Shown piece by piece: positions 42,692 to 62,946 of a stretch of 64,000 nt of DNA. The notes under the pieces were generated by a model that worked only from the letters and a program-made list of their open reading frames with translations, did no database searches and had not been told where the DNA came from. The stretch spans positions 74,007 to 138,006 of the forward strand of contig JANGFR010000002.1 of the NCBI GenBank assembly GCA_024707015.1, written 5' to 3'. Positions within the stretch are counted from its first letter, which is position 1, and each line of letters opens with the position of its first letter. A program made the translations under genes and the position numbers. Source of the stretch: Candidatus Culexarchaeum yellowstonense (GTDB taxonomy: Archaea; Thermoproteota; Methanomethylicia; Culexarchaeales; Culexarchaeaceae).

Positions 42692-43057
42692 TTAGATTGG
42701 CATTGGAATTGTTGGTGTTATGAGTCGTGTTAGGCTGGAGAGGATGTAGGTTATTATTAGTATGAATAGGCTTCTGGACCAGCTTGATCTGTATATGAAT
42801 TTTATGATGGATAGGTATATTATGAGTTTTAGGATGTATGAGGCTTGGAATTGGTTGAATGATGATATTATTGAGTTCATTAGCATGATCATTGTGGAGG
42901 AGGCTATGGCTAGGGGGAGGCTTTTGAGTCCGACTATTTTGGAGCTTAAGTATATGATTATGGTTAATAGGATGAAGCTTATTGTTAGATAGGGTAGGGA
43001 TTGTAGGATTGATGTTGGGTCGTAATTGGTTGCAGTTGTTATGTTAAGATTTGTCAT
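42692..43057 (-). CDS. Small integral membrane subunit, last gene of the membrane-bound hydrogenase operon (possible Mrp/MbhA-G-like or NuoK/J-like piece)
   Basis: 121 aa with about 3 TM helices. Overlaps the upstream NuoI-like gene by 14 nt. Confidence 0.4.
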   Translation of the reverse strand: MTNLNITTATNYDPTSILQSLPYLTISFILLTIIIYLSSKIVGLKSLPLAIASSTMIMLMNSIISSFNQFQASYILKLIIYLSIIKFIYRSSWSRSLFILIITYILSSLTRLITPTIPMPI

Positions 43058-43616
43058 ATAGGACGTGCTTCCTTGTGTGGATATTTAGTTTGAAGCTTAG
43101 GGTTTTTCTGCAATTTGGGCATAGGTGTAGGTATTTTGGTAGATCTTCTTGGGCGTATTGTATGGCTTTAGCCTCCTTTAATCCACTCATTAACCTATCG
43201 GTGATGCGGTTAAGTTGCTTTTCTGGTGCAAAGTAGTTTCCGCAGTTAATGCATTTTGAAAGTTCAATTGTGTTTGAAACTTTGAGTTCCGATTTATTGT
43301 TTGATGCTATTTCGAATTTAGTGGTTAAGGTTAATGCATCTTCAGGGCATACTTCGGCGCAACGCCTACAAAACACACACTTATTCAAATTAATGTTTAA
43401 ATTACGTTTACCCTCCGCGTCTATGTATGTTAATGCACCGCTACTACATTGGCTAACGCATGCACTGCACCCAATACATTTATCTGCATTGAATTCGGGC
43501 ATACCGCGCAGAGTTTCTGGAACACTACTATACTTCTCAACGCCAACACCAGCAGGATACTTAATTGTGTATGGTTTACTTAGAGCTTCAATGGCTCTCT
43601 TAAATGATTTGAGCAA
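43044..43616 (-). CDS. 2x[4Fe-4S] ferredoxin subunit of a group-4 hydrogenase (NuoI/EchF/MbhN-like)
   Basis: CIGCSACVSQC...CP and CVFCRRCAEVCP are two CxxCxxCxxxCP motifs. A C-terminal Cys-rich tail includes CINCGNYF. 190 aa. Confidence 0.8.
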   Translation of the reverse strand: MLKSFKRAIEALSKPYTIKYPAGVGVEKYSSVPETLRGMPEFNADKCIGCSACVSQCSSGALTYIDAEGKRNLNINLNKCVFCRRCAEVCPEDALTLTTKFEIASNNKSELKVSNTIELSKCINCGNYFAPEKQLNRITDRLMSGLKEAKAIQYAQEDLPKYLHLCPNCRKTLSFKLNIHTRKHVLYDKS

Positions 43617-43617
43617 T

Positions 43618-44628
43618 TCATGCCACCCCCAAAATAAACCTGATGATTATGGAGAATATTATGGAGAATGCGGATAAGGGCCATAGGTACTTGATGGCCC
43701 ATGAGACTGCTTGATCAATTCTAAATCTTGGGGCTATTGAGTGAACTATGGATATTATGAGTGTGACTATGAAGCACTCCAATAGGAAGACTATGAAGTT
43801 GAATATTTGATTGTATATGCTTGTTGGTGGCAGTATAAGTCCCCCTGAAAGGAATAGGTTTACAAACAATCCGATGAGGACTGATGTTAGAATGTATTTT
43901 GAGGATAATATTGTTGCTAGAAGTTTTCCGGAGTATTCTGTGTATGGACCTGAAACTATCTCCACATCAGCTTCAGGTATTTCGAATGGGTTGAAGTGCA
44001 GTTTCCCAAGTACTGCAATTATGAAAACTATGGCTGCGAAGGGGTTTAGAAGGATTATTGGATAGGATTTCAGCTGAAAACTCATGATGCCGCCAATCGA
44101 TAATGAATTGGATATTATGGCTGAAGAGAATATTGATGAGAGCAATGAAACTTCAATTACAAGCATCAGCTCAGCCTCCCTCCTAGATCCAACAACACTC
44201 CAAGGTGATGATGATGCCAAACCACCCAAAACCCAGAATAGGGATACACCAATTAAAATGTATGTTATGAAGATTATGCTGAGCGGATTATCTGCAAGCA
44301 AGCTTAAACCACCATAAGATATAAAGTATGTGGATAAAACTGCCAGGATGAAGCTTACTATTGGTGATGAAACAAATAAACCTTTACGTGCACTTCTAGG
44401 TATAATCGTCTCCTTAAACATCAATTTCAAAACATCGTAGAGGGGTTGTAAAACCCTACTTGAACCTAAAAGCCCCCTCAACTCACCATGCATTGAAAGT
44501 AGTGGTCCAAGCCTATACTGACTCCTAGCATAAACCTTCCTAATCTCATAATTGAACAAGACTCCAAGGATGAAGCATAACACTGGAATAAATATTATTG
44601 CTAGGAGCACAACCATCACCCCCTCCAA
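43618..44628 (-). CDS. Membrane subunit of a group-4 hydrogenase (NuoH/EchB/HycD/MbhM-like)
   Basis: 336 aa with about 8 TM helices. N-terminal RKVYARSQYRLGPLL resembles the NuoH R-x-GPxxxG loop. Overlaps the large-subunit gene by 13 nt. Confidence 0.75.
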   Translation of the reverse strand: MEGVMVVLLAIIFIPVLCFILGVLFNYEIRKVYARSQYRLGPLLSMHGELRGLLGSSRVLQPLYDVLKLMFKETIIPRSARKGLFVSSPIVSFILAVLSTYFISYGGLSLLADNPLSIIFITYILIGVSLFWVLGGLASSSPWSVVGSRREAELMLVIEVSLLSSIFSSAIISNSLSIGGIMSFQLKSYPIILLNPFAAIVFIIAVLGKLHFNPFEIPEADVEIVSGPYTEYSGKLLATILSSKYILTSVLIGLFVNLFLSGGLILPPTSIYNQIFNFIVFLLECFIVTLIISIVHSIAPRFRIDQAVSWAIKYLWPLSAFSIIFSIIIRFILGVA

Positions 44629-46247
44629 CCCTTAAATGCTAGATTCTTAAATTCATCACCACTCAAAGTCCACTGCTCCCCCCTCTTGGAATCAACTATC
44701 ATTACACGATCTGTGCATGAGAAGCATGGGTCAACGCTACCAATAATTATTGGTGCATCTGCAAGTCTACAACCTTTAAGCATGAATTTGAGGGCTGCAA
44801 TATTACGGTAACTTGGAGTTCTAATCCTAACAGTGTGCGGTATATCCATACCATTCGAAATTACGTAGTAGACTAGTTCACCCCTAGGAGCTTCAACCTT
44901 ACTTAAAGCTTCACCCTCAGGGAATGGTTTAAGTTCTGAAGTAGCTACTGGTCCACCAATACTCTTCAACCTATCAACACATTGTAGACATATATCTATG
45001 GATACAAGGGTTTCCTTAACTCTAACCATAACCCTTGAAAGTACATCCCCAGCCTCCTCAACCACAACATCCCAACTTATATGCCCCTCATCATAGAATG
45101 AGTATGGACTATCCCTTCTAACATCAATCTTCCATCCACTAGCCCTAGCAGTTGGCCCTACAGCTCCAGCCTCCCTAGCATCACTTAGAGACATGACACC
45201 TACACCCTCAGTCCTACGCCTAACAATGCTATGTGAAGCTATATCTTCAGCTAGTTTTTTGAAATCCCTCTTAACTTCAAGCAGTTTACTTTCAACTTTA
45301 CTAAGCTGCTCCTTAGTGACATCGAATCTTACGCCGCCAATACTCATGGAATCTGCATGAACCCTATTGCCCGATAGCAATTCAATGCAATCCTGTATTG
45401 GCTCCCTAATCTTCCAAGCCCACATGAGCAAAGTTTTAAAGCCAATCAAGTCTCCTGCAACGCCAAGCCATAGGAGGTGACTATGTATCCTATTCAACTC
45501 AGCCATTAAAACCCTAATATACTCAGCCCTCTCAGGGACATTTACCCCAAGAATGCGTTCCACAGCATTCACGAAAGCCAATTGATGCGGAACACTACAT
45601 ATACCACATATCCTACCAACAAGGAATAGGTCACGCCAAAAAGTCCTACTCTCAGCCAACTTCATTATCCCACGATGATTCAAACCAACCTTAATATCCA
45701 CATCAACAACATCTTCACCATCAACGAATAACTTGAAGAATCCACCTTCAAGCATTGCCGGATGATATGGACCTATGGGTAGAGTGACTTGCTTAACCCC
45801 AGCCTTAGATTCACTGGAACTCTCAACTGGGTTAGGCCACTCAAAGGGGAGGAAGATGTGTCTAGGGTCGGGGTGACCATCAAACTCAACTCCAAGGAGC
45901 TCCATAGTCTCCCTCTCAGCCCAATTAGCTTGATAAGTCAATTGTGCAACTGATGGAAACTTCGCTGGTTCACCATCACCATAAGCATACAATATTACAT
46001 GGGCATGTCTATCTATGTGTTCAAGACTGTAGATGTGCATGAGCCTAATACCATCAAAACCCATGTCTGAAGCTGTGACATGGACAATTCTAGAGCCTAT
46101 GGAAAGCATGTATTTAGCTGCATCCAGAAGCCTATTTGGACTGGTCTTAACACGTACATGCTTACCTCCACAACCATAACCAGTAATTTCAAAATCGGGT
46201 TTAAGGATGTTTCCAAGCTCATTTAAAACATCATTTAAACTCTTCAT
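44616..46247 (-). CDS. [NiFe] hydrogenase large subunit, group 4, fused NuoC-like + NuoD-like (HycE/EchE/MbhL-type)
   Basis: N-terminal NuoC-like domain (about 150 aa), then RICGICSVPH (RxCGxCx3H Ni/Fe-binding motif L1) and C-terminal DPCFSCTDR (DPCxxCxxR/H motif L2). All four metal-ligand Cys are present. 543 aa. Confidence 0.85.
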   Translation of the reverse strand: MKSLNDVLNELGNILKPDFEITGYGCGGKHVRVKTSPNRLLDAAKYMLSIGSRIVHVTASDMGFDGIRLMHIYSLEHIDRHAHVILYAYGDGEPAKFPSVAQLTYQANWAERETMELLGVEFDGHPDPRHIFLPFEWPNPVESSSESKAGVKQVTLPIGPYHPAMLEGGFFKLFVDGEDVVDVDIKVGLNHRGIMKLAESRTFWRDLFLVGRICGICSVPHQLAFVNAVERILGVNVPERAEYIRVLMAELNRIHSHLLWLGVAGDLIGFKTLLMWAWKIREPIQDCIELLSGNRVHADSMSIGGVRFDVTKEQLSKVESKLLEVKRDFKKLAEDIASHSIVRRRTEGVGVMSLSDAREAGAVGPTARASGWKIDVRRDSPYSFYDEGHISWDVVVEEAGDVLSRVMVRVKETLVSIDICLQCVDRLKSIGGPVATSELKPFPEGEALSKVEAPRGELVYYVISNGMDIPHTVRIRTPSYRNIAALKFMLKGCRLADAPIIIGSVDPCFSCTDRVMIVDSKRGEQWTLSGDEFKNLAFKGWRG

Positions 46248-46253
46248 CCCAGA

Positions 46254-47777
46254 TCACCATAAATCCATAAATTTAAACATAACATCATTATGGAGGGATA
46301 CTCCATAGGCTAGAAAGCCATGATACATTATACCAATTATAATTGATATTAAAGCTAAGAGGATTATGGAGGTAAACATTAAATCTGGTTTCTCCCTAAA
46401 AACGCCACTACCCCTAGCTGAAGCCACAACTATTCCGAGGAAAACACATAAAACTATTATACCACTGAGATATATTAAACCCTCATATATTGAGCTTGGA
46501 ATACCATAAAACTGATTGCCAGAATAAATGATTGATTCCATCACCATATGCTTACCATAATAACCTGAGAAGAATGGAAGTAAACCTGAAACGCTCATCC
46601 CACCTAAAATAATGATGAGTGAAGTGATGGGCATAGACCTAGTTGCCATTGAAAGTTTAAGCCAATTCCTCTCATGGAAAACCTTCACATACAAACCTGC
46701 AGATAGGAAGAGGAGTGCCTTAGCAATTGAATGTGCAAATAGGTATAATGCTGATCCAAAAATGCATAGATATGCTTCATAACCACTCATGGAAACACTT
46801 AAACCAATTGATGAACCTAGGAACCCCATACTCAAAATGCTACTGAAGGCTATAACCCTCTTAATATCCCTATCAATTATCATCCCCAACACTCCAAGGA
46901 CAATATTAATTAAACCTGAAAGGGTTATGAAAGCCCCCACATCCATTGAAATTATTGGTGAAAGTGAATAAACGTATTTCAATATTGGGATATATGCAGA
47001 CTCTATTATTACACCTGAAAGCATTGCACTAACTGGTGAAGGTGCTTCCGAGTGAACTAATGGGAGCCATAGGAGTGCAAGTGGAGATGTGCCAGCCTTA
47101 ATTCCAAAACCTAAAAGGATTAGGTAGGAGGCAAATTTGAAATTCCAATCATAAATCCCATATCTACTCAACCTATAAACATCCAGTAGATCGAAGTGTA
47201 AACCATAACCATTGATGAGGAGGCATACCCCAATTATTATTAGAATAGACTCTAAAATCGACATGGCCAAGTATACTATAACTGAAATAACAGCTCTACC
47301 CCTACGTTCACCATACAAAACTAGAATTGCACTCAGAGCTGTGGAAGCTTCAAGAAAAAATAGCATGTAAATCAAATTGCTAGATGACACCAGCCCAATT
47401 AGTGTCGCTAATAGAATTGGTATAATTGCAAAGTACAATCTAAATCTACCATTCAATTCAGAATCGAAATATTTGATTGAGTATAATGTTGATATTAAAC
47501 CAACAATCAATATAACCTCACACATAGCATAAATAAGGAAATCCGTAAACAATTTTGATTCCAGCTCAGCTAACCCAGCTGCTAATATTCCTGCTAATGG
47601 TATGGCGTTAACAATTAATGAGGAGAATATCAATAATGTGGAGAGGTGTATGGAATATTTTGATTTAAATGCTGAAATTATTAGCGATGATAAGAATAGA
47701 AGTGCATATGTCAATATGAGGTTAATGCTCACCCTTCTCATCCTCCATGAATGGTAGATTAAATATGTAGATTTCAT
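46254..47777 (-). CDS. NuoL/M/N-type (Mrp antiporter-like) membrane subunit of the hydrogenase (EchA/HyfB/MbhH-like)
   Basis: 507 aa with about 14 TM helices and conserved antiporter-like charged residues in the membrane. The start is possibly the internal Met (MRRVSINLIL). Confidence 0.75.
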   Translation of the reverse strand: MKSTYLIYHSWRMRRVSINLILTYALLFLSSLIISAFKSKYSIHLSTLLIFSSLIVNAIPLAGILAAGLAELESKLFTDFLIYAMCEVILIVGLISTLYSIKYFDSELNGRFRLYFAIIPILLATLIGLVSSSNLIYMLFFLEASTALSAILVLYGERRGRAVISVIVYLAMSILESILIIIGVCLLINGYGLHFDLLDVYRLSRYGIYDWNFKFASYLILLGFGIKAGTSPLALLWLPLVHSEAPSPVSAMLSGVIIESAYIPILKYVYSLSPIISMDVGAFITLSGLINIVLGVLGMIIDRDIKRVIAFSSILSMGFLGSSIGLSVSMSGYEAYLCIFGSALYLFAHSIAKALLFLSAGLYVKVFHERNWLKLSMATRSMPITSLIIILGGMSVSGLLPFFSGYYGKHMVMESIIYSGNQFYGIPSSIYEGLIYLSGIIVLCVFLGIVVASARGSGVFREKPDLMFTSIILLALISIIIGIMYHGFLAYGVSLHNDVMFKFMDLW

Positions 47778-48015
47778 CCATATGGATGTATGGAGGTTTA
47801 GCTAAACCACACATGAAAACTGAATCCAAATCTACATTACGTGATTGAAGCCATGGAATTAAAACTATGAATGTCAAATAGAATATTGAAGTTGAAGCTA
47901 ACTCAACTAGGAATAATGTTAGAATGATATCTGATGTTAAGGGTACAATCCAAAATCCAATGGCCAACAATCCTAACGATATTATTAGGGGGATGTACAT
48001 GTACTTCAACTTCAT
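47722..48015 (-). CDS. Small membrane protein within the hydrogenase operon
   Basis: 97 aa with 2-3 TM helices. Overlaps the NuoB-like gene by 4 nt and its 3' end overlaps the annotated start of the NuoL-like ORF. Confidence 0.35.
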   Translation of the reverse strand: MKLKYMYIPLIISLGLLAIGFWIVPLTSDIILTLFLVELASTSIFYLTFIVLIPWLQSRNVDLDSVFMCGLAKPPYIHMDEIYIFNLPFMEDEKGEH

Positions 48016-48464
48016 TTAACCACCCCACACCTCTCACGTAGGATGCTTATTGCCTTAACAACACCATTTATTATGGCTTCAGGTTTTGGTGGGCATCCAG
48101 ATACAAAGACATCCACTGGGATAACCTTATCTGCTCCACCAAGGATTGCATAAGTTTCTTCACCCTCAACATCATTGAATATTCCACCAGAACAGGCACA
48201 TGAGCCTATGGCGACAACAACCTTTGGGTTTGGAACTTGCATATAAACTCTCTTCATGAATGATGCAATATGCTTTGTAACTGGACCTGTAACTATTAGG
48301 ATGTCTGCATGCCTTGGAGATGTAACCAATTTAATCCCAAATCTCTCAACATCAAATCTTGGGGTTAATGCTGCAACAAGTTCAATGTCGCATCCATTAC
48401 ATCCACCAGCATGTAAATGGTAAACCCATGGTGAATATGTGAACATCTTCTGTTTAAACCCCAT
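48012..48464 (-). CDS. [NiFe] hydrogenase small subunit, group 4 (NuoB/EchC/MbhJ-like)
   Basis: Cys ligands for the proximal [4Fe-4S] in GGCNGCDIE, GSCACSGG and C-P (SGCPPKP). 150 aa. Its start codon abuts the stop of the upstream HdrB-like gene. Confidence 0.85.
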   Translation of the reverse strand: MGFKQKMFTYSPWVYHLHAGGCNGCDIELVAALTPRFDVERFGIKLVTSPRHADILIVTGPVTKHIASFMKRVYMQVPNPKVVVAIGSCACSGGIFNDVEGEETYAILGGADKVIPVDVFVSGCPPKPEAIINGVVKAISILRERCGVVK

Positions 48465-49328
48465 TTAACCCACCAACCTACCAATTATATTTTCAGTTGA
48501 AATTGCATGTGTATTTAAGCCGAAACTTTCTGGCTTAATTCCAAAACTTAAAGCTAAGAGTTCACTTAAATGTAACACTGGAATCCCATATTCTAATCCT
48601 TCATCTTTGAATGTCAATTGGGCTTTCTCAAATTGATCGTAGCATGCTGGGCATGCAACTACAATTGCATTTGCACCTGAATTCTTTATGGCATCAAGCT
48701 TCCACTTAGTCCTCTCCCTCATAGCCTTATCCACCGAGTATAGCATTAATGGGTATCCACAGCAAACACGCTCCAAACCATAATCAACGATCTCAACATT
48801 CAAAGCCTTCACAATTTCCCTAAGATACTTGGCGCCCCTCTCATCACTCATCTTATATAATTTGCATCCTGGGTGAAGTGCAACTTTAAGCCAACTTAAA
48901 TCCACATTAACATTGCTTCTAATAGCATTTAAACCAACATCTTCAAACAATACTTCAGTATAATGTTTAACTTTAATAGTCCCATTAAATTTCAATCCAA
49001 ACCCCTTAAGATTCCCATTAATCTTCTCCCTCAAATCACTTGACTCAATAAGCTTCTCCCTAGCTTCATGCAGAGACTCCCAACACCCATTACACATCAC
49101 AATTATATCCCTCCCAATAGCTTCAGCTAAGGATAGGTTTCTAGCAGCCACAGTTAACCATAAATCTTCATCTACAAGTCTAGCTATTTCTGGAACTGGG
49201 CAGCATGAAGCTCCATTTATATCGAGGAGGTTGATTCCAAGTTTACTGGATATGGCTCTCATGGATGATTCAGCAAATGGCTGCATTGCAGGTATATAGC
49301 ATCCTAGGAATAGACTGTATTCAAGCAT
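48465..49328 (-). CDS. CCG-domain (Cys-rich) protein, HdrB/HdrD-C/GlpC/Sulfolobus-SdhC-like
   Basis: Two Cys-rich repeats: C...CCP...CNGC and C...CCG...CPAC (287 aa). The first has CCP instead of CCG. Confidence 0.75.
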   Translation of the reverse strand: MLEYSLFLGCYIPAMQPFAESSMRAISSKLGINLLDINGASCCPVPEIARLVDEDLWLTVAARNLSLAEAIGRDIIVMCNGCWESLHEAREKLIESSDLREKINGNLKGFGLKFNGTIKVKHYTEVLFEDVGLNAIRSNVNVDLSWLKVALHPGCKLYKMSDERGAKYLREIVKALNVEIVDYGLERVCCGYPLMLYSVDKAMRERTKWKLDAIKNSGANAIVVACPACYDQFEKAQLTFKDEGLEYGIPVLHLSELLALSFGIKPESFGLNTHAISTENIIGRLVG

Positions 49329-49343
49329 ATGGATACCTCCAAC

Positions 49344-49622
49344 CTAATATTTGAAATCCCTCCTATCAAAGTCAAATCCAATCCTTCTACCAGCACCAAT
49401 CGATTTAATGAGATTGAACATTTGATTCACATATTCAGTGTTGCTATATGCTGTTGGGGGTATGCTTGGCAAACCAATCCTACTCCTAGTCCTCTGCATA
49501 TATCTAGAAAGCATTGGAACATGACCAGTTCTAAGTATACTCCTAATTGGAGATTTAAGTGAATCCTGCAATCCCACAATATCCTTCCTTAATGGGTGAA
49601 TTTTACCTTCGCTGGAGCTCAT
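49344..49622 (-). CDS. Small basic protein of unknown function inside the Hdr/hydrogenase operon
   Basis: 92 aa, Cys-free, Arg-rich. Overlaps the upstream polyferredoxin gene by 4 nt and has a 15-nt gap to the downstream gene. Confidence 0.3.
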   Translation of the reverse strand: MSSSEGKIHPLRKDIVGLQDSLKSPIRSILRTGHVPMLSRYMQRTRSRIGLPSIPPTAYSNTEYVNQMFNLIKSIGAGRRIGFDFDRRDFKY

Positions 49623-50104
49623 GATCTCACCCTCTCCAAAACCTCCCTCCTAGGTAATACTTGAAGTGCACCAGTACTACAATACTTTGCACATAGAAAT
49701 TCACCTTTACATGCATCGCATTTAACGCTAACCCTCAACCTCTCATCGAAAAAAGGTATTGAGATGGGGCATGCATAATTACAGCTTCTACAACCAATAC
49801 ATAGAGCTGGATTTATGAGTACAAATCCTGTTACAGTATCCTTACTTATAGCTTTAGGTTCCACTGGACATGCAGCCATACAAAATGGGTCTTGACAATG
49901 ACTGCAGTAGTTGTTTATGAAGAGTGGATTCCCCTCAGGGTTCAATGCCACCATCAAGTATGCCTTCGAAATATCAATTACCCCATAATGCTTGTATGAG
50001 CAAACCTCCATGCAATATAGGCATCCTGAACATTTATTTGGATCGTAGAAGAGCACTTTCTGTTCCTCTAAATTCAAGGTGCATGCCCCACAACAATTTT
50101 TCAC
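49619..50104 (-). CDS. Polyferredoxin, 4x[4Fe-4S] (HycB/DmsB/HdrC-like electron-transfer subunit)
   Basis: Four CxxCxxCx3C-type motifs: CSGCLYCMEVC, CSHCQDPFCMAACP, CIGCRSCNYACP and CDACKGEFLCAKYC. 161 aa. Confidence 0.8.
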   Translation of the reverse strand: MKNCCGACTLNLEEQKVLFYDPNKCSGCLYCMEVCSYKHYGVIDISKAYLMVALNPEGNPLFINNYCSHCQDPFCMAACPVEPKAISKDTVTGFVLINPALCIGCRSCNYACPISIPFFDERLRVSVKCDACKGEFLCAKYCSTGALQVLPRREVLERVRS

Positions 50105-50502
50105 TGCTGATACTTAGAGTACTCCTCGGCAGTTAAAAGTTCATCCTTCTCCTCTTCCCACTTTGTTGGTTGAATTATAACTAGCCATCCAGCTCCATAT
50201 GGATCTGCATTAACAAGTGATGGCTGCTTTAAAACCCTCTCATTAACCTGCTTTATAACACCACTAACTGGGGATATAAGGTCGCTGGTGGCTTTAGTGG
50301 ACTCTATAACTCCGAATGGCTCGTACTGTGAAACTGTTGTGCCAACATTCTCTAATCTAATTCTCCTAACGGTCTTCAGCATCTTTTGTGCATAATCTGT
50401 TATCCCAACCCTAACGGTTCCATCGGGCAGAAGTTCAGCCCATGTATGGTCTGGAATGTAATATATGCCTTCACGCAAAACATAACTCTTACTCATACCC
50501 AC
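50101..50502 (-). CDS. Glycine-cleavage H-protein-like lipoyl-carrier protein (GcvH/LbpA-like)
   Basis: HTWAEL...VRVGITDYAQKML...ESTKATSDLISPVSGVI...NADPYGAGW reproduces the GcvH fold motifs (HxW, GITDxAQ, ESVKAxSDxxxPxSG, NxDPYGxGW), with the lipoyl-Lys in ESTKA. 133 aa. No gcvT or gcvP nearby. Confidence 0.75.
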   Translation of the reverse strand: MGMSKSYVLREGIYYIPDHTWAELLPDGTVRVGITDYAQKMLKTVRRIRLENVGTTVSQYEPFGVIESTKATSDLISPVSGVIKQVNERVLKQPSLVNADPYGAGWLVIIQPTKWEEEKDELLTAEEYSKYQQ

Positions 50503-50593
50503 ACACCTGGCAAAATAAGATTATACTTGATTTCTTAAATAGTTTACCATAAGCCAGCAAAGTGAAATATAGGTTGATTTAAAAAAATGTGGT

Positions 50594-52270
50594 TTAAATT
50601 GGGAATATTGGTATGGCTTTGGATAGAACCTTTTCCCCTCTATATTCTGGTAGTAGCATTGGTGCACGCCTATCCTTTGGAGCGCCGATCTTCTCAAGCT
50701 CTTCAACATATCTTGGTATGTGATTCAATGTTAGCTTCCCTGGGCTAGCACCACTCTTAACATATTTTGCAGCTGAAATGCCAGCTCTCCTACCATAGAC
50801 TTGGGTGTCTAGCAGTGAGTTGCCCATAAGTCTATTCTTCCCATGAACCCCACTTGTAACCTCCCCAGCTGCGAAGAAACCTTCAATTATTCCATTGGCA
50901 TCTAAAACCTGTCCATACTTGTTTATACATACGCCGCCATTCATGTAGTGTAATGTTGGGAAGACGAGTATAGGCTCTTTTGTGACATCTATACCGAACC
51001 TTGCATACATCCTATATACTGAGGATAGATACCTCTTAGTGGCGCCTTCTCCTCTAACAATGTCCACCATTGGAGTATCAAGCCAAACCCCCCTAACCCC
51101 AGTCGGCGTAACTATACCCTTGTTTCTACCATAGCATTCCCTTATTATTGCCGCTGAGACAGCATCTCTAGTTTCGAGTGGATATACGAATTGTTCACCA
51201 TCAATGTTAACTAGCTGTGCACCCATGGATCTAACTTTCTCAGTTATGAGCAATCCAAGTATCTGATCTGGGTACGCTGCACCTGTTGGATGGTATTGTG
51301 TGGCGTCTAGATCCCTTAGCTTTGCCCCAACCCTATAAGCTAGGACTACTCCATCCATTGTGGCTCCATAGTGATTTGTGGTTGGGAAGTTTTGTATGTG
51401 TAGTCTACCATAACCTCCAGTGGCTAAGACTACGGCTTTAGCTCTAGCAACATAATACTCCTTTGTCTCCATATTCCATAGTATTGCACCTGTAACTCTA
51501 TTTCCAGAATCATCTGTTAGCAATTCTATTGCTGGAGAAAATTCCAGTATGCGTATCCCCCTATTCAATACTTCATCCATCAATACACGCATGATTTCAA
51601 GTCCAGTGTAATCTTTGCATGAGTGCATCCTATTCCTAGATGTACCTCCACCTGAAACTTCAATCATCGTTCCATCGGGCTCCTTATCGAACATGACGCC
51701 TAAATCTTCAAGCCACTTTATTATGAATGGGGCATCCCTGACAAGCTCCCTAACGAGCTCAGGGTCATTTGTGTACTGTCCACCACCCATAATGTCTAGG
51801 AAGTGTCTTGCAGGGCTATCATTCGGTCTATCTGCAGCCTGTATACCTCCTTGAGCCATCTTGGTATTTGCATCCCCAAACCTAAGCTTTGTGGCTATGA
51901 GAATGTTCTCTGCAGGTATACCCTCAATGTTAGCCCATAATGCTGCAGAAGCCCCTGCACCTCCACCTCCAATCACAAGTATATCTACATCGTAATCTAT
52001 CTTGCTCAAATCTATATCCTTTGGATCTATTAGTGGATAGGCTTCAATGAGGTTTGCAACTTCATGTGGAACCATTAATCCAGCACTTGGGCCAATCTTT
52101 ATAGGCCTCTTAGTCCCCTCCTTATAATCTGGATGCCAAGTTTTGAGGAGCTCCATCTTCTCATCTGGGCTAAGCCGTCTATACCTCTCCTTAAGCCTCC
52201 TCTCCCTAGTCTCCTCCACAATCTTAATGTATTCCCTCATGTAATCTGGATACCCAATCTTCTGAGACAT
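50594..52270 (-). CDS. FAD flavoprotein of the fumarate reductase/succinate dehydrogenase/L-aspartate oxidase superfamily (non-covalent-FAD type)
   Basis: DVDILVIGGGGAGASAA dinucleotide fold and HPTG active-site motif. C-terminal RLMGNSLLDTQVYGRRAG. The covalent-FAD histidine position reads ANTKMAQGG (K, not H), as in NadB and TfrA. An unusual ~90-aa N-terminal extension precedes the FAD fold. 558 aa. Confidence 0.8.
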   Translation of the reverse strand: MSQKIGYPDYMREYIKIVEETRERRLKERYRRLSPDEKMELLKTWHPDYKEGTKRPIKIGPSAGLMVPHEVANLIEAYPLIDPKDIDLSKIDYDVDILVIGGGGAGASAALWANIEGIPAENILIATKLRFGDANTKMAQGGIQAADRPNDSPARHFLDIMGGGQYTNDPELVRELVRDAPFIIKWLEDLGVMFDKEPDGTMIEVSGGGTSRNRMHSCKDYTGLEIMRVLMDEVLNRGIRILEFSPAIELLTDDSGNRVTGAILWNMETKEYYVARAKAVVLATGGYGRLHIQNFPTTNHYGATMDGVVLAYRVGAKLRDLDATQYHPTGAAYPDQILGLLITEKVRSMGAQLVNIDGEQFVYPLETRDAVSAAIIRECYGRNKGIVTPTGVRGVWLDTPMVDIVRGEGATKRYLSSVYRMYARFGIDVTKEPILVFPTLHYMNGGVCINKYGQVLDANGIIEGFFAAGEVTSGVHGKNRLMGNSLLDTQVYGRRAGISAAKYVKSGASPGKLTLNHIPRYVEELEKIGAPKDRRAPMLLPEYRGEKVLSKAIPIFPI

Positions 52271-52273
52271 AAC

Positions 52274-52981
52274 CTATCCCTCCGGACTTTCAATATCCCT
52301 ACTATCATACAACTTCTTCAGTTCAGCAGAGCTCATTTTAACCAGCTTATCAAGTTCCATATCAAATTTCCCCTCCTCTATCTCCTTAACCCTAATTTCA
52401 AGATGCTTGGCTTTTGGAGCCATATATTTGCCATAGAGCCTCCTAACCAACTGAAATACGTGATAATGGATTATTTCAGCTGGACATCTAATGCTACATA
52501 ATCCACATGAAATGCAGTCAAAGCATAACTCAGCGGCTTTGGCTATATCCCCCCTCTTAATCATCTGTATTGCATCCATAACCTGCAATTCCTGTGGGCA
52601 TGCCTTAGTACAAGAATTGCATGCAACACATCTAGCTACTTCGGGATATAATGCCAATACATTTGCACCTGTAGGCTTTAACTCCTCAATATTATACTTA
52701 ACCTTCTCCGCTGGTGCAAAGGGTATTTGAACAAGGTACATTCCATCTTGAACTGTTGTTTGGCATGCTAGAGCTGTGTAGAGCCTATAATCCCCCTTAA
52801 GCCTATATATCGTTGCACATGCACCGCAGAATCCACCCCTACAACCAGCACCCCTAATATACTGGTATCCAGCATACTCAACAGCCTTCATTATAGTTAT
52901 CCCAGCAGGAACTTCATACTCCTTACCCATAATGTATATTTTCACGGTCCTCTTAGGTTCAGTTTGACCCGCCATGTTCAT
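52274..52981 (-). CDS. Iron-sulfur subunit, SdhB/FrdB-like (2Fe-2S plus 2x[4Fe-4S]-type Cys clusters)
   Basis: Plant-ferredoxin-like CRGGFCGAC...C, then CVACNSCTKACP and CFDCISCGLCSIRCP. 235 aa. Overlaps the downstream HdrB gene by 4 nt. Confidence 0.75.
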   Translation of the reverse strand: MNMAGQTEPKRTVKIYIMGKEYEVPAGITIMKAVEYAGYQYIRGAGCRGGFCGACATIYRLKGDYRLYTALACQTTVQDGMYLVQIPFAPAEKVKYNIEELKPTGANVLALYPEVARCVACNSCTKACPQELQVMDAIQMIKRGDIAKAAELCFDCISCGLCSIRCPAEIIHYHVFQLVRRLYGKYMAPKAKHLEIRVKEIEEGKFDMELDKLVKMSSAELKKLYDSRDIESPEG

Positions 52982-53832
52982 CCACCACCAATTTTACTCT
53001 TAAAGATTGAAAGGGTTTCTTGGGATAGTTTTTCGTCGAGGCCCATGGCATAAGCCATCAACTCAGTGAAATATAGTGTTGGTATATTAAATTTGTTTCT
53101 AACGATATTTAAGTTGTAATGGCAAAGTGGACATGCAGTTATTATCATATCTGCACCCCACCTCCCAGCAGCCCTAACTATCTCCCCAACAGTCCTCTCA
53201 ACCATACTCCTATCATAAACCACATTATAAGAACCACAACACCTCTTCTCATATGGGAATTTAATGGGCTTAGCGCCTAAACTGGAGATCAAATCTGATA
53301 GTATGTGTGGATCTTCAGGGTCATCTATACCAATACCCCTTGGTCTAAGTAGTGAACAACTATAGAATGGTGCAACCTTTAATTTGCTTAAATCCCTCTT
53401 AACAGCCTCCCTAACCCTCTTTAAACCTATGATATTATCATCCAATATTATTTCAAGCACATGCTTAACATCCACACCACAATTATATCTAGGCTCATCA
53501 TCCATGTACTTACTTAGATTGTCAAGCTTCTCAGGATCACTTGTAACGATCTCATTAACCTTCTTCAATGTGCTATAACACATGGAGCATAGGGTTATAA
53601 GCCTATTATCCCCAACCTTACCCATAAACTCCTGAGCCCTTACAAGATCCCTCAGTGGAGCAACATGCTGCATAACTGCATCAGCAGAATACTCATACAT
53701 CACACCACAGCAATTCCATCTATCCAGCTCCACAAGCTCCACATCAAAAAGCTTCAAAACTGCAATGGCGGAATCCTCATAGCTTTTAGCGTAATCCTTA
53801 ACTGAGCAGCCAGGGTAATACATGAACTTCAA
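52978..53832 (-). CDS. hdrB: Heterodisulfide reductase subunit B (two CCG domains)
   Basis: PGCSV...CCG...CSMC and C...CCGSY...CPLC give two full Cx(n)CCGx(n)CxxC repeats. 284 aa. Confidence 0.8.
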   Translation of the reverse strand: MKFMYYPGCSVKDYAKSYEDSAIAVLKLFDVELVELDRWNCCGVMYEYSADAVMQHVAPLRDLVRAQEFMGKVGDNRLITLCSMCYSTLKKVNEIVTSDPEKLDNLSKYMDDEPRYNCGVDVKHVLEIILDDNIIGLKRVREAVKRDLSKLKVAPFYSCSLLRPRGIGIDDPEDPHILSDLISSLGAKPIKFPYEKRCCGSYNVVYDRSMVERTVGEIVRAAGRWGADMIITACPLCHYNLNIVRNKFNIPTLYFTELMAYAMGLDEKLSQETLSIFKSKIGGG

Positions 53833-53838
53833 CCACGA

Positions 53839-54210
53839 TCACCCCGTAAGCTTCCTTGAAGCTGATATCAGAGCTATTTGAGGTAAATCCCCAAGCCCCT
53901 TAACCCTCCTCAAATCCACTGGATAAATGTTTTTACGTTGAACAATGGTTCTAAGGACATTTATCATTCTAGCTGGATCTATATCCCTCGGACACCTAAC
54001 ACTACAAGTATTACATGAAGCACAAACCCAAATGGTCTTGCAATTCAAAACCTCAGGCATATCGAGTTGAATCATCCTTATAACTTGATGTGGAGGAACA
54101 TCCATATCCTTAATCATTGGACAGCTACCACTACAAATACCACATTGAATACATAGGTATGGATTCTTCCCACTCAACTCATAAACAGTTTGAGGTAAAC
54201 CTCTAAACAT
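53839..54210 (-). CDS. hdrC: Heterodisulfide reductase subunit C (2x[4Fe-4S])
   Basis: CIQCGICSGSCP and CASCNTCSVRCP with the HdrC-type C-terminal extension. 123 aa. Confidence 0.8.
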   Translation of the reverse strand: MFRGLPQTVYELSGKNPYLCIQCGICSGSCPMIKDMDVPPHQVIRMIQLDMPEVLNCKTIWVCASCNTCSVRCPRDIDPARMINVLRTIVQRKNIYPVDLRRVKGLGDLPQIALISASRKLTG

Positions 54211-54221
54211 GACTACACCCC

Positions 54222-56612
54222 CTAAACCTTAATCCTCCCCCTATCCTCAACACTCAATGGGCCAAGCTTCTCCACAATGGATACAAGATCACCTAAATCC
54301 TTCACAAGCCTCTCAGCCATATCGACGGCTATGGTGTCAAATTTAAGCCTCCTAGCATCAATCCTATATTTCCTCATCTGGGATCTAGCCTCCCTAATAA
54401 CATCGTTAATTACATCTAAAACTTTGGGATGATATGGCGATGCCCCCTCAAGGCAGTCTCCAATGAAAACTCCATCAGCACCATACTTGAATGCACTCAA
54501 TATTATTTTTGGTGTAAGTCTACTTGCACTTGGAACAGTTATAACCCTAACCCTATTATCATAGGTAAGCCTACTGGTACCTGCAAGATCTGCAGCCCTA
54601 TAAGTGCAGGAGTCATCGAAGAATGCTATAACTCTAATTTCACCATCCCTCTTACTCTTAAGAGCCCCCTCAATCTGGCTTAAAATTTGCTTCTCACTGT
54701 AATGCTTCAATTCAATAGCCCCCCTTGGGCAGTATGGTATGCAACTTCCACAACCAACACATAGAGCTTCACTAATATGCGCCTTACCATCCACCATACT
54801 TATAGCCCCCAGCGGACACTTATCAACACATACTCCACAACCATTACATAATTCAGCAATTACATAGGCTTTTATTGGCTCTATAAGTATCCTACCCTGA
54901 CTTATGAGTCTAAGAGTTCTCCCAGCAGCTGCACTGGCCTGAGCCACACTATCAGCTATATCCTTAGGTCCCTGTGCACACCCACATATGAAAACCCCCT
55001 CCCTAAGCGTATCCACAGGCCTATACTTCGGGTGAGCTTCAAGGAGGAATCCATCTGGACCTATATTCAACTTGAGCTTCTTAGCCAACTCCTCAACACC
55101 ACGTGATGGAACTAGACCCACAGATAAAACCACAAGATCAAATTCATCTTCAATAAATCTTCCAGTCAACGTATCTTCAGCCCTAACTATAACCCTACCA
55201 CTCACGGGATCCTCAATGACCTCACTAACCTTCCCCCTAACGAATTTAACACCCAAATCCTGTGCCCTCATATAGTATTCTTCAAACCCCTTACCATAAG
55301 CTCTAATATCAATGTAGAATAAGGTTATATCCCTAGTTACATCTTGCCTCTTCAACGTCATAGCCTGCTTAATAGTGTACATGCAACAAACCCTCGAACA
55401 TCCAGGTCTACCAATCTGCTCATCCCTAGAACCCACACAATGTATGAATGCAATCTTCCGGGCAAGTTGACCATCAGATAACCTAATAACCTTACCACCA
55501 GTTGGGCCTACTGGCATAACCATCCTCTCCAATTGTGGCGCTATTATAACATTCTTGTATACTCCGTAACCGTACTGTTTAAGTTTAGTTGCATCGAAGG
55601 GCTCATAGCCAGTGGCAACGATTATTGCATCCACAACAATATCCAATATCCTCTCCTTATCATCGAAGTTTATAGCCTTCTGTGGGCAAACCCTCTCACA
55701 AACCCTACATATCCCCTTAGTTAAGTATAGGCAGGATTTTGGGTCTATGAGATACTTGTATGGAACAGCCATTTCATGTGGAACGTATATTGCCCTCCTA
55801 TTCCTAAGGCCATAATTGAATTCATCTGGCGCAGATGCAGGGCATTTTGATGCACATATCCCACAAGCAACACATTTACTCATATCAACATATCTCGGTT
55901 TAACCTTAACCTTAACATGGAAATCACCCACACTCCCACTAACATCCTCAACTTCACTGTAAGTCAATAATGTAATGTTTGGATGATTATACACTGCAGC
56001 CATTTTTGGTGAGAGTATACAGAGGGAGCAGTCGTCAGTTGGGAATGTGTAGCTTAACTGAGCCATCCTACCCCCAATTGCGGGTTCCTTCTCAACCAAG
56101 TAAACTTTACAACCAGAATCAGCCAAATCCAATGCAGCCTGAATCCCAGCTATGCCAGCACCAATAACCATAACCCTATTCCCAACCTTAACCTCCCTCG
56201 CCTTCAGAGGTTCATTAAGATTAACTTTACCAATAGCAGCCATTATCTGATCAATGGCTCTTCTGGTAGCCCCATCTGGATCGTTGGAGTGAACCCATGA
56301 ATCCTGCTCCCTAATATTAACCATCTCAAACAAGTATGGGTTTAAACCAGAATCCTCGAGGAGCTTCATGAATGTTGGACCGTGAAATTTTGGGGAACAA
56401 GCTGCAATGATAACCCTATTCAAATTATATCGTTTAATATCCTCCCTAATCTCCCTCTGACCAGCCTCAGAACATACATGCTCATTATCCTTAACTAGAA
56501 CAACACCATCAACACCGCTAATGGCCTTCAAAACCTCATTTATCCTAACGACATTGGATATATTTCCACCACAATGACAAACATAGACACCAATCCTAGC
56601 ATCATTAGCCAT
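54222..56612 (-). CDS. hdrA: Heterodisulfide reductase subunit A with a C-terminal MvhD-like domain fusion
   Basis: N-terminal VYVCHCGGNIS (HdrA N-domain), FAD-binding VIGAGIAGIQAALDLADSG, inserted ferredoxin motifs (CVACGICASKCP, CRVCERVCP), a C-terminal 2x[4Fe-4S] domain (CNGCGVCVDKCP / CVGCGSCIPYCP), then an MvhD-like tail (FFDDSCTY...FKYGADGVFIGDCLEG). 796 aa. Confidence 0.85.
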   Translation of the reverse strand: MANDARIGVYVCHCGGNISNVVRINEVLKAISGVDGVVLVKDNEHVCSEAGQREIREDIKRYNLNRVIIAACSPKFHGPTFMKLLEDSGLNPYLFEMVNIREQDSWVHSNDPDGATRRAIDQIMAAIGKVNLNEPLKAREVKVGNRVMVIGAGIAGIQAALDLADSGCKVYLVEKEPAIGGRMAQLSYTFPTDDCSLCILSPKMAAVYNHPNITLLTYSEVEDVSGSVGDFHVKVKVKPRYVDMSKCVACGICASKCPASAPDEFNYGLRNRRAIYVPHEMAVPYKYLIDPKSCLYLTKGICRVCERVCPQKAINFDDKERILDIVVDAIIVATGYEPFDATKLKQYGYGVYKNVIIAPQLERMVMPVGPTGGKVIRLSDGQLARKIAFIHCVGSRDEQIGRPGCSRVCCMYTIKQAMTLKRQDVTRDITLFYIDIRAYGKGFEEYYMRAQDLGVKFVRGKVSEVIEDPVSGRVIVRAEDTLTGRFIEDEFDLVVLSVGLVPSRGVEELAKKLKLNIGPDGFLLEAHPKYRPVDTLREGVFICGCAQGPKDIADSVAQASAAAGRTLRLISQGRILIEPIKAYVIAELCNGCGVCVDKCPLGAISMVDGKAHISEALCVGCGSCIPYCPRGAIELKHYSEKQILSQIEGALKSKRDGEIRVIAFFDDSCTYRAADLAGTSRLTYDNRVRVITVPSASRLTPKIILSAFKYGADGVFIGDCLEGASPYHPKVLDVINDVIREARSQMRKYRIDARRLKFDTIAVDMAERLVKDLGDLVSIVEKLGPLSVEDRGRIKV

Positions 56613-58342: not shown

Positions 58343-59062
58343 TTATTTTTTGACCTTCTTGTAGTAGTCGTATCCTAGTAGTGTGGCTAATAGTAGTAGT
58401 GCAACCCATGGGAAGAACATCTTGTTTTCAGGCGCATATGGAGGTATACCTAGTAAGAACTGTGCTCTACCAATGAACATGGACATTCTTGTTAGTACTG
58501 TGTATCCGTATGCTGAGCCGAAGCCTATCATCATGGCATATCTAGCAAACTTGTTAATAGGCTTCCAGAAGGCAGCTTCCTGCTTTAATGTGAAAGTGAA
58601 GTATAATAAGACGCAGATCACAATGGCGGCTGTAACTAGATTGTTGAATGCAGTCCAAGGATCCACACCAATGAAGGTCAATCCAGCTGTAGCGCTAACC
58701 TGTCTAATAAGCTGAGCAAAGACTATGGTTCTCAAAGCCAATCCGATACCAGTACCAACGACGACGGCCAATGCAATTCTGTAGAGCCAGAAGAATCTCT
58801 TAGAGAATCTGAAATACCATAATACACTTACGAGTAATGCAAGTATGAAAGCAGCTGTACCGCTGGTGGTCGTTGACCATGTGCCCTCCCATTGACTCCT
58901 CAGCCAATCCAAGGAGTATGCAATATCATATCCAGTGGCTGTTCCTATGAAGACGTATTCAGCTAATCTAGACCATGGATTCTCCTTGTATAGGAATGTG
59001 TAAACTGCAAGTGTGAAGAATACTCCGCAGAATGCTGCAAATAGTGTGGTTATGTCTGTCAT
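58343..59062 (-). CDS. Integral membrane protein (unknown function), last gene of a four-gene membrane operon
   Basis: 239 aa with about 7 TM helices. Overlaps the upstream gene by 4 nt. Confidence 0.45.
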   Translation of the reverse strand: MTDITTLFAAFCGVFFTLAVYTFLYKENPWSRLAEYVFIGTATGYDIAYSLDWLRSQWEGTWSTTTSGTAAFILALLVSVLWYFRFSKRFFWLYRIALAVVVGTGIGLALRTIVFAQLIRQVSATAGLTFIGVDPWTAFNNLVTAAIVICVLLYFTFTLKQEAAFWKPINKFARYAMMIGFGSAYGYTVLTRMSMFIGRAQFLLGIPPYAPENKMFFPWVALLLLATLLGYDYYKKVKK

Positions 59063-59919
59063 TTAACTCCCCTCCTCTTCTTAGCAAAATATCCAATGTT
59101 GCCTATGATCACGAATATTAGGAAGACCATATGGGTTGTCGATAATGCATCAGCTGAAGCTACTGCTAGACCCTTCCTGCCTATTAGAAGCTCGTACTCT
59201 GCACCAGCCCTCAAACCTGGAAGCATACCCTTAACCTGACCTGACTGAACATATGGAGTGACACCTGGAGCGCTAACCCCTATACATGCAATTAACATTG
59301 GAACATTATATGTGCCCCACTGCCTAACCCACTCATCAACGCCAGGTGTACCAGTCTCTATACTTATAAGTAGTTGAACATCATTAGCAGACCTCAAATT
59401 CTGCATAATTGGATATTCACTAACGGGACGCTTATACAGATAATCTGTGGGGAAAACTTTCCAGAAGTCTTGCCCCAATGCACGCATAGCAACTTCACCT
59501 CCAGGAGCCCATCCTAGAAATATCCAATCCACACCATACTTCTTACCATAAGTAACCTCTGGGTTCAACTCGTCAATGATCATTTTAGCGACAAGGGGTC
59601 CCTGATTCCATATAGCTATAATAGCGAACTTTATAGGTCTACTGAACAAGTGATGCATAGTTGCCACAGCAATTGGGTAAAGCTCTCCAAGAGATCCCAA
59701 ACCGAAGTCAAAGGATAAGACAACCATGGAGCCTGGGGGCAAATTCTGTATGGTTCTATAGTATGCTTCGGTGTTAGGACTTATACTCACAGGCAACCCT
59801 ATTGGGGAAATCATTGGAGTTAAAACGACTATCCATATGAGTAGGTATATTATTCTGGAATCGATGTTTTCAAGCTTCTCCCAAATACTAATACTACCAG
59901 ACATTTTACGTCCCCCCAC
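59059..59919 (-). CDS. Membrane-anchored protein of unknown function
   Basis: 286 aa. N-terminal TM, large soluble domain and a C-terminal TM plus basic tail (KKRRGVK). Overlaps neighbours on both sides. Confidence 0.45.
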   Translation of the reverse strand: MGGRKMSGSISIWEKLENIDSRIIYLLIWIVVLTPMISPIGLPVSISPNTEAYYRTIQNLPPGSMVVLSFDFGLGSLGELYPIAVATMHHLFSRPIKFAIIAIWNQGPLVAKMIIDELNPEVTYGKKYGVDWIFLGWAPGGEVAMRALGQDFWKVFPTDYLYKRPVSEYPIMQNLRSANDVQLLISIETGTPGVDEWVRQWGTYNVPMLIACIGVSAPGVTPYVQSGQVKGMLPGLRAGAEYELLIGRKGLAVASADALSTTHMVFLIFVIIGNIGYFAKKRRGVK

Positions 59920-60568: not shown

Positions 60569-60571
60569 CCC

Positions 60572-61366: not shown

Positions 61367-61535
61367 CTCCAGAAACTTTCCAATAATAATCTTAAGAAGT
61401 GAAAATATATATATACCTTTCCTCCTTTCTAAAATAAAGTAACTAACATTTTTAGGAAAAGTGAAAAATATAGTTTGCCATGCAATTTCAAAATCTAAAA
61501 TACTTTAATTAGGTTATTTATATTGTTAAGATTGT

Positions 61536-62942: not shown

Positions 62943-62946
62943 AACC

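Follow-up and report, generated by a model that had tools for sequence, protein, structure and literature searches.

What heterodisulfide reductase (Hdr) acts on in organisms without coenzyme M (CoM) and coenzyme B (CoB) is an old open question. Two described systems bring a GcvH-type protein together with Hdr. In the sHdr system the protein is LbpA, which, like the protein studied here, is homologous to GcvH and genetically linked with CCG proteins resembling Hdr (Cao et al. 2018 eLife, PMC6067878; Tanabe et al. 2023, PMC10332631). The second is Ehe, an energy-converting hydrogenase cluster (EheA–O) containing EheJ/gcvH, reported from the metagenome-assembled genome (MAG) YNP-LCB-024-027 (Kohtz et al. 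2022, ISME Commun 2:86; PMC9723716). Culexarchaeia do not have the complete CoM/CoB biosynthesis, and the lipoyl disulfide of EheJ was proposed to interact with HdrB and/or HdrA2B2C2 (PMC9723716). We analysed a 64,000-nucleotide stretch of the hot-spring archaeon Candidatus Culexarchaeum yellowstonense (contig JANGFR010000002.1, positions 74,007 to 138,006), referred to as the window, which carries EheJ on the minus strand at 50101..50502. The gene and the hypothesis are those of Kohtz et al., and the order of the 15 genes from EheO to EheA matches the published cluster gene by gene. A preliminary description of the window had taken LbpA for the only described GcvH–Hdr case and the locus for a new, second pairing of a lipoyl protein with Hdr. 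Neither claim holds, as locus, organism and lipoyl-disulfide idea were all published in 2022. A literature search found no follow-up of that paper and no other GcvH–Hdr links outside sHdr. The present analysis adds comparative support and caveats to a published idea and is no discovery. On balance, though not by much, we favour EheJ being a dedicated H-protein paralogue, probably lipoylated on K68, whose lipoyl disulfide would be turned over by the two HdrB-type subunits of the cluster.

Fold, operon and glycine-cleavage residues of EheJ

EheJ is, with high confidence, a GcvH-fold protein. The Pfam profile GCV_H (PF01597) matches residues 14-132 with E=4.5e-35. The score is above the subfamily cut-off of the NCBIfam GcvH model PRK01202 (134.2 bits vs 117) and under the equivalog cut-off of TIGR00527 (110.1 bits vs 115.85). 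The AlphaFold2 model, built from 12 relatives, has a mean pLDDT of 92.8, and its comparison by Foldseek with the solved H-proteins of M. tuberculosis, E. coli, Thermus, pea and cattle gave TM-scores of 0.87-0.91 and root mean square deviations of 0.8-1.3 Å. Only canonical H-proteins match EheJ in the PDB, and the PDB sequence set searched contains no LbpA structure for comparison. The lipoyl-lysine motif is intact, ESTK68ATSD in the 131-aa numbering (full stretch ESTKATSDL), as the preliminary description had read it. In the model, K68 occupies a hairpin turn between strands 60-66 and 70-74. K68 is invariant in 12 relatives, and the motif ESTKATSD is unchanged in Culexarchaeia orthologues of as low as 68% identity. 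As the orthologues have 131 aa and begin with MS, the ATG at 50496 (131 aa) is a likelier start than the GTG at 50502 (133 aa). In its 131-aa form the protein matches MCR6624233.1 of Ca. Culexarchaeum yellowstonense YNP-LCB-024-027 at 100% identity. Another close orthologue, with about 90% identity, is encoded on a contig of about 1.58 Mb.

The EheJ gene lies, as first described, between the flavoprotein gene EheK and the polyferredoxin, HdrB and hydrogenase genes. The gap towards EheK measures 91-97 nt (91 nt as the interval 50503..50593, minus strand). Some 45 nt ahead of the EheJ ATG it contains ATGGTAAACTATTTAAGA, a BRE/TATA-like element that is conserved and that we take for a putative promoter. 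An Rfam scan of the window gave no matches, hence no riboswitch upstream of EheJ. In Guaymas Basin relatives, whose EheJ is 77% identical, the HdrA2-HdrC2-HdrB2-EheL-EheK block is inverted and divergently transcribed, while gcvH stays first in the gcvH-EheI-EheH-HdrB-hydrogenase unit. The ATGGTAAACTATTTAAGA element is kept in both arrangements, the lineage with the inverted upstream module included. Because gcvH is retained with the hydrogenase genes despite the inversion, and the element is conserved, EheJ belongs to the HdrB-hydrogenase unit. Of the translational coupling to the polyferredoxin gene that had been proposed, the tight linkage stands but the 4-nt overlap does not. The overlap needs a GTG start for EheI that is unavailable in relatives, where the EheI open reading frame (ORF) begins about 21 nt past the gcvH stop.

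The ORF scan took in all long ORFs of the window and most of those with 90 aa or more. None of the scanned ORFs encodes GcvT, GcvP, Lpd (dihydrolipoamide dehydrogenase), DsrE or TusA, in agreement with the earlier remark that glycine-cleavage genes are not nearby. The part of the gene tables of Kohtz et al. covered here (PMC9723716) lists EheJ as Ga0272449_1000032143 and, in the same MAG, a second gcvH beside gcvT (Ga0272449_1000001776/777) together with gcvPA and gcvPB (numbered ..753/754). At least two gcvH genes are listed for 8 of the 10 MAGs and one each for the two most incomplete ones, and one copy is numbered consecutively with gcvT. EheJ is thus not the only gcvH of its genome and, going by these parts of the tables, it is a second, dedicated copy. 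The gcvT-linked copy is taken from the published table and was not re-derived from sequence. A profile search of genome contigs with an EheJ-clade alignment listed mostly canonical bacterial GcvH, with no Culexarchaeia genome among the matches listed. In about half of 80 control loci, taken from the matches listed by the genome search, gcvT is directly upstream. Bathyarchaeia homologues of EheJ (~47-50% identity) also lie near gcvT.

We then inspected the residues that handle the glycine-cleavage intermediate. In the E. coli H-protein, Glu-12 and Glu-14 of the EHEW motif form hydrogen bonds with the aminomethyl nitrogen (PMC7733448). EheJ has D-H-T-W at this place, with Glu-14 replaced by Thr. 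The H-E-W triplet was compared among 99 GcvH sequences from fetched loci (numbered with the prefix L below). HEW is kept in 35 of the 37 GcvT-adjacent proteins, and HTW is found in all seven Culexarchaeia EheJ sequences (7/7). Among the other GcvH proteins encoded beside CCG, CoA-disulfide-reductase-like or Hdr genes, the Glu is kept in 3 and missing in 11 of 14, mostly as H-(V/T/C/L/F/M)-W and once as RVW. The loss of Glu-14 may hence be read as a signature of divergence from glycine cleavage. EheJ lacks all three of a TIGR00527 score at the equivalog level, the Glu-12/Glu-14 pair of EHEW, and an association with gcvT/gcvP.

These data bear on an explanation by a bridge from glycine cleavage to Hdr, in which EheJ would still be loaded by the P- and T-proteins while Hdr/Ehe, in place of the NAD-linked L-protein, would re-oxidise dihydrolipoyl-H and hand the electrons from glycine to protons (giving H2), fumarate or ferredoxin. 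EheJ is close to canonical H-proteins in sequence and fold, the part of the published tables covered here contains no lpd, and peptidase and amino-acid genes abound in the window, as would befit a peptide fermenter. On the other hand, a separate gcvH stands next to gcvT in the same genome according to those tables, every Culexarchaeia EheJ has lost Glu-14, a residue that contributes to holding the aminomethyl-lipoate intermediate, and gcvT and gcvP are not within the 64 kb. We regard this explanation as unlikely. The comparison makes it plausible that EheJ is a dedicated lipoyl partner of HdrB-type subunits and not a glycine-cleavage H-protein.

The Ehe subunits and the lipoate assembly genes

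All Ehe genes of the window are on the minus strand. Upstream of EheJ, the first gene is EheO (54222..56612), a 796-aa HdrA2 with a fused MvhD (FlpD) domain that scores 970 bits on the HdrA2 model. It is followed by EheN (HdrC2, by profile match; 53839..54210), EheM (HdrB2; 52978..53832), EheL (52274..52981, overlapping EheM by 4 nt) and EheK (50594..52270). Downstream of EheJ are the polyferredoxin EheI (49619..50104; four CxxCxxCxxxC motifs, start codon uncertain), the cysteine-free, 92-aa EheH (49344..49622) and the HdrB-type subunit EheG (48465..49328). The six genes EheF-EheA (43044..48464) encode a membrane-bound group-4-type [NiFe]-hydrogenase module. They are the NuoB-like EheF (48012-48464), EheE (47722-48015), the antiporter-like EheD (46254-47777), EheC (44616-46247), a NuoC-NuoD/NiFe large subunit with the nickel-ligand motifs RICGIC and DPCFSC, the NuoH-like EheB (43618-44628) and the NuoI-like EheA (43044-43616). 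A 397-kb contig with an identical EheJ (L096) has the gene order of the window out to OsmC-LplB. An ORF for a 121-aa membrane protein (window 42692-43057), also called in L096, shares 14 nt with the end of EheA; it may be an extra, unlisted subunit of the operon.

EheG and HdrB2 each contain two complete CCG motifs, the sites of noncubane [4Fe-4S] clusters, in the form CX31-39CCX34-39CXXC. EheG has the spacings (CXnCCXnCXXC) 31/35 and 33/35, HdrB2 the spacings 31/39 and 38/34. Both proteins score under the cut-off of the methanogen HdrB equivalog. EheK is a flavoprotein of the fumarate-reductase/succinate-dehydrogenase type by profile matches and alignment. Aligned with the structures of SdhA, FrdA and NadB, it keeps the His of HPTG, the TE pair, the Arg of RD, the His of HYxxGG and the Arg of HGxNRL. 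We take these residues to form the C4-dicarboxylate site of the Sdh/Frd family. EheK has Asn in place of the His that binds FAD covalently, lacks the C-terminal Sdh domain and is extended by 92 aa at its N-terminus. EheL, of 235 aa, is a [2Fe-2S] plus 2x[4Fe-4S] protein resembling SdhB and the N-terminal part of TfrB. TfrB matches are divided between two subunits, the N-terminal [2Fe-2S] part to EheL only and the C-terminal part to HdrB2 only. Taken together, HdrB2, EheL and EheK resemble a thiol:fumarate reductase of the TfrAB type with its parts split and reordered. EheK scores 320 bits against the TfrA equivalog (cut-off 718), the TfrB cut-off is likewise missed by a wide margin, and the three subunits, which by score are not members of the TfrAB family, may work like Tfr.

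In L007 and L018, HdrB is preceded by a NuoC-like subunit whose C-terminal 75 residues align with EheH, which is probably a detached docking segment or adaptor that tethers HdrB to the hydrogenase. Our assignments differ from the published labels in that EheL is not CdhA, EheH is not HdrC, and EheK/EheL/HdrB2 are Tfr-like. The published reading of EheL as CO dehydrogenase/CdhA was rejected, the CdhA match being confined to a 64-residue ferredoxin insert. Without CdhA identity, EheL gives no basis for the CO-oxidation role proposed for the cluster. EheH, which the paper labels 'HdrC?', is devoid of Cys and homologous to the NuoC tail. L-aspartate oxidase was considered for EheK, given nadA and nadC in the window, and dismissed (271 bits vs a cut-off of 453; operonic with Fe-S and CCG subunits).

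Lipoate assembly genes that the preliminary description overlooked lie about 10 kb downstream of gcvH on the same strand, about 3-4 kb past the last Ehe gene with four genes intervening. These are the lipoyl synthase gene LipS2 (38996-39991; NF053743, 365 vs 270) and LplB (40001-40279; NF053749, 69.4 vs 65), accompanied by OsmC (40325-40786), a gene of the lipoyl-dependent-peroxidase type. LplB-LipS2 come directly after the cluster in L001, L002 and L177. The presence of LplB and LipS2 would also fit EheJ being only the first acceptor in lipoate assembly, a lipoyl relay like GcvH of Bacillus subtilis. We find this barely credible, because neither an amidotransferase nor another lipoyl-domain acceptor was seen in the window and EheJ is conserved as the first gene of the hydrogenase operon. 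The sole other Biotin_lipoyl ORF (62947-63489), located directly upstream of an OadA-like gene, is probably a biotin carrier.

The combination of OsmC with a lipoate-assembly set recurs beside GcvH in L007 and L013, which suggests a link to lipoyl-dependent peroxidases. In that case, dihydrolipoyl-EheJ would reduce an OsmC/Ohr-type hydroperoxide reductase, and the HdrB-hydrogenase would regenerate EheJ from H2. Lipoyl-dependent Ohr/OsmC peroxidases are documented, including a system of H-protein, L-protein and OsmC (references 7 and 8 of PMC10332631). OsmC is beside LplB-LipS2 in the window and between LipS2 and LplA near GcvH in L007 and L013, and rubrerythrin and superoxide dismutase genes are also present in the window. 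Yet OsmC is not in the neighbourhood of L001 and L004-L006, and the 15 genes of the cluster, among them those for HdrA2, an antiporter-like subunit and the fumarate-reductase-like module, go far beyond the needs of a peroxidase. Such a function for EheJ appears quite improbable.

Elsewhere in the window, an OadA-like carboxyltransferase gene (61536-62942) and the gene of the biotinyl-domain protein (62947-63489) precede four membrane-protein genes, namely DUF6754 (60572-61366), 59906-60568, 59059-59919 and 58343-59062. The four membrane genes (58343-61366) are kept beside the Hdr/Ehe cluster in L001, L004-L006 and L096, and the whole set (58343-63489) may represent an uncharacterised membrane decarboxylase. 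Oxidative-stress genes of this presumed strict anaerobe encode a rubrerythrin (18153-18668), an Fe/Mn superoxide dismutase (18668-19264) and a rubrerythrin-like protein (20263-20724). Two long ORFs, 1581-2759 (392 aa) and 25977-27221 (414 aa), match nothing in Pfam at E<=1e-4.

GcvH-like proteins beside CCG-domain genes in other archaea

Of the four closest lysine-bearing relatives that EheJ has outside Culexarchaeia, three were read on usable contigs; the 59% match lies on a contig that is too short. All three readable relatives (52-53% identity) adjoin CCG proteins. In L015, the lysine-bearing gcvH, 53% identical to EheJ, begins 17 nt after a TfrB gene whose product scores 428 against an equivalog cut-off of 385. 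The order in this locus (L015:156-2127 and 2256-2915) is TfrB, GcvH and a B12-binding corrinoid protein. In L007/L008, from a Thermoprotei MAG, and in L013, the genes LipS2-OsmC-LplA-LplB are divergent from gcvH and the gene of a CoA-disulfide-reductase-like flavoprotein. L007/L008 continue with an EheI-like polyferredoxin, a Mrp-like subunit, NuoC, HdrB, the NiFe large subunit, NuoH, NuoI, NuoB and HycI. The flavoprotein partner of GcvH is of the single-Cys CoA-disulfide-reductase/Nox type and scores 396 bits on TIGR03385, under its cut-off. Pfam domains had pointed to Lpd for the gene adjoining GcvH in L007, which is instead of this single-Cys type. The pairing of GcvH with this flavoprotein (L007:7113-20246, L008, L013:5173-10635) is also present in L020, L023 and L169.

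Two of the loci show additional arrangements. The lipoate-assembly block of L013 includes an extra CCG protein resembling the TfrB C-terminus. In Ca. Terraquivivens ruidianensis (L036:220-8923) there are three GcvH-like genes, two of them lysine-less, each beside a Fer4+CCG protein of the HdrD/GlpC/TfrB-C-terminal-like kind, and a GlcD-like FAD oxidase is also encoded. A neighbour-joining tree places the CCG-linked GcvH proteins together with a bootstrap of 9/100; Culexarchaeia plus L015 reach 42/100. A single clade of CCG-linked GcvH is accordingly not claimed.

A metagenome search with an alignment of the hydrogenase-type HdrB returned 80 loci, nearly all with the core EheI-EheH-HdrB-NiFe-NuoB. 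A GcvH-like gene lies within 5.6 kb in 16 of these 80, two of the 16 being Culexarchaeia-type, and only 12 of the 64 loci without such a gene are flanked by 3 kb or more on each side. Kohtz et al. state that Ehd-like clusters are without GcvH, whereas we find GcvH-like genes, mostly lysine-less, beside many of them. Two of the 14 non-Culexarchaeia proteins keep the lysine (L147 and L149), with LplA adjacent and an ESGKW-type motif. EheJ differs from this other CCG-linked subtype by keeping ES(T)KA(T)SD.

The lysine-less proteins are of several types. The most frequent has ETWMFMFD in place of ESxKAxSD, an N-terminal ribbon-helix-helix (RHH, CopG) DNA-binding domain and a length of ~197-200 aa (L133, L134, L146, L152, L159, L163, L167 and L172). 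A protein from the genome search (L018:9803-10405) is of the same type as these eight. Both N-termini scanned pass the RHH_1 threshold of 20.5, with 20.7 bits for L018 and 25.8 bits for L172. In L018 the gcvH-like gene heads an operon and is followed by GltD-like/MvhD/HdrA/MvhD/HdrC/HdrB/MvhG/MvhA. The RHH-GcvH fusions look like regulators or transcription factors in which the GcvH fold would serve as sensor or partner. Three other proteins have ETWNFILD and a C-terminal Cys-rich tail, CKELCFGCPKKNCTLC. Their genes (L115 from 275, L116 from 5774, L136:8019-8507) directly precede the EheI-EheH-HdrB-NiFe core and are transcribed divergently from it. As the redox group, lipoate may have given way to the cysteines of the CKELCFGCPKKNCTLC tail. 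The one remaining lysine-less protein is otherwise degenerate.

As most of the hydrogenase-linked GcvH-like proteins are lysine-less, the recurrent link is the GcvH fold and not uniformly lipoate, and a general lipoate model fails. The idea that lipoyl-GcvH is a wide companion of HdrB-hydrogenases, derived from the 16 of 80 loci, was dropped. The same distribution raises the question of whether EheJ itself is a lipoate-independent docking or sensor subunit of the HdrB-hydrogenase, its lysine being incidental. The missing lysine in 12 of 14 proteins, with RHH_1 in eight and the Cys-rich tail in three, would be in line with this. Opposed to it are the invariance of ESTKATSD in Culexarchaeia orthologues down to 68% identity, the linkage of lipoate-assembly genes to the cluster, and EheJ itself, which has no DNA-binding domain. 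We consider a lipoate-independent EheJ distinctly unlikely.

A broader reading, which we put forward tentatively and would not bet on, is that non-methanogenic TACK archaea generally employ GcvH-fold proteins as dedicated partners of their CCG-domain enzymes (HdrB/TfrB-type). The lysine-keeping lineages, that is, those with the Culexarchaeia Ehe, the Thermoprotei GcvH/CoA-disulfide-reductase-like/HdrB-hydrogenase and the TfrB-GcvH pair, would then use protein-bound lipoate as a physiological 'heterodisulfide' connecting H2 with fumarate and NAD(P)H. Elsewhere, probably in Bathyarchaeia, the lysine may have been lost, and a fusion with RHH may have produced a regulator beside hdr-mvh and HdrB-hydrogenase operons. 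Beyond the published Culexarchaeia case, this wider pattern was not found in the searchable literature. The same applies to the loss of Glu-14, the TfrB-GcvH pairing, the architecture with the CoA-disulfide-reductase-like protein, GcvH and HdrB-hydrogenase, and the lysine-less RHH-GcvH fusions.

Proposed role of EheJ and comparison with known systems

From these sequences and gene orders we infer a possible role for EheJ as a dedicated lipoyl partner of the two HdrB-type subunits. K68 would be lipoylated by the archaeal LplAB/LipS1-LipS2 pathway, and the lipoyl disulfide/dithiol of EheJ would serve as a protein-bound stand-in for CoM-S-S-CoB, a compound that this non-methanogen is unable to make. 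Lipoyl-lysine is an amide-linked acyl chain ending in thiols, like CoB-SH plus a second thiol, so an HdrB site is a chemically reasonable partner. Two subunits would turn over lipoyl-EheJ. EheG would be joined to the ion-translocating membrane [NiFe]-hydrogenase via EheI and EheH, and HdrB2 would work with HdrC2, HdrA2-MvhD and the TfrAB-like EheL/EheK module.

The standard potentials are -414 mV for H+/H2, about -290 mV for lipoamide, +33 mV for fumarate/succinate and about -450 to -500 mV for ferredoxin. In the first step of the proposed cycle, which we take for the likeliest net chemistry, H2 would reduce lipoyl-EheJ to dihydrolipoyl-EheJ at the membrane, a drop of ~120 mV that would be enough for ion pumping. 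In the second step, dihydrolipoyl-EheJ would be re-oxidised through HdrB2/EheL/EheK with fumarate as the acceptor (~320 mV). HdrA2 may spend part of the fumarate-driven drop on the reduction of ferredoxin. The direction may be reversed in vivo.

Several observations weigh against this role. EheJ is near-canonical as an H-protein, just 5.75 bits short of the TIGR00527 equivalog cut-off and ~43-44% identical to M. tuberculosis GcvH over the full protein, with a higher value across the aligned conserved core. Of the lipoate-assembly genes, LplB and LipS2 are in the window and LplA and LipS1 are not, and these genes would serve the canonical GcvH too. Given the lipoamide potential of about -290 mV, bifurcation to ferredoxin via HdrA2 would be near equilibrium if driven by H2. 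The lipoyl lysine is missing from most (12/14) of the non-Culexarchaeia GcvH-like proteins at the EheI-HdrB-NiFe core, and 8 of those 12 carry ETWMFMFD and the RHH domain. Nor is a common origin of the CCG-linked GcvH proteins supported, at the bootstrap value given above.

If the proposed role is confirmed, CCG-cluster enzymes would have protein-bound lipoate as a substrate besides CoM-S-S-CoB and DsrC. How a deep-branching class of archaea conserves energy from H2 and fumarate independently of quinones would then be explained as well. For the question of what Hdr acts on without CoM/CoB, a lipoylated H-protein paralogue is a concrete and expressible candidate.

Compared with canonical GcvH, EheJ has the same fold (TM ~0.9), the lipoylation hairpin and the DPYGxGW motif. 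Different from canonical GcvH, it has no gcvT, gcvP or lpd nearby, its Glu-14 is Thr, and a separate gcvT-linked copy exists according to the parts of the published tables covered. LbpA is genetically tied to lipoate assembly of the archaeal LplAB/LipS1-LipS2 type, and for EheJ, LplB and LipS2 lie about 10 kb away, with LplA and LipS1 not in the window. The locus is not sHdr-like, as the preliminary description had rightly judged. The scanned ORFs of the window contain neither the hdrC1B1A-hyp-hdrC2B2 set nor DsrE, TusA or rhodanese, and its HdrA is the large, 796-aa HdrA2-MvhD instead of the short HdrA of sHdr. A search for the CPxP motif in short ORFs (60-140 aa) gave two matches only, antisense to or outside called genes, which look spurious. 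The partner of EheJ is a hydrogenase, unlike the sulfur-transfer chain of sHdr. Ehe also resembles TfrAB and HdrABC/HdrA2B2C2 of methanogens in joining CCG domains and SdhB-like Fe-S clusters to a flavoprotein that carries a fumarate site, and its HdrA2 with a fused MvhD is as in Methanosarcina HdrA2. The logic of a dithiol oxidised by fumarate and a disulfide re-reduced by Hdr would be shared with methanogens. In contrast to the methanogen enzymes, the Ehe subunits are split and reordered, the organism is without CoM and CoB, and the proposed dithiol is protein-bound lipoate.

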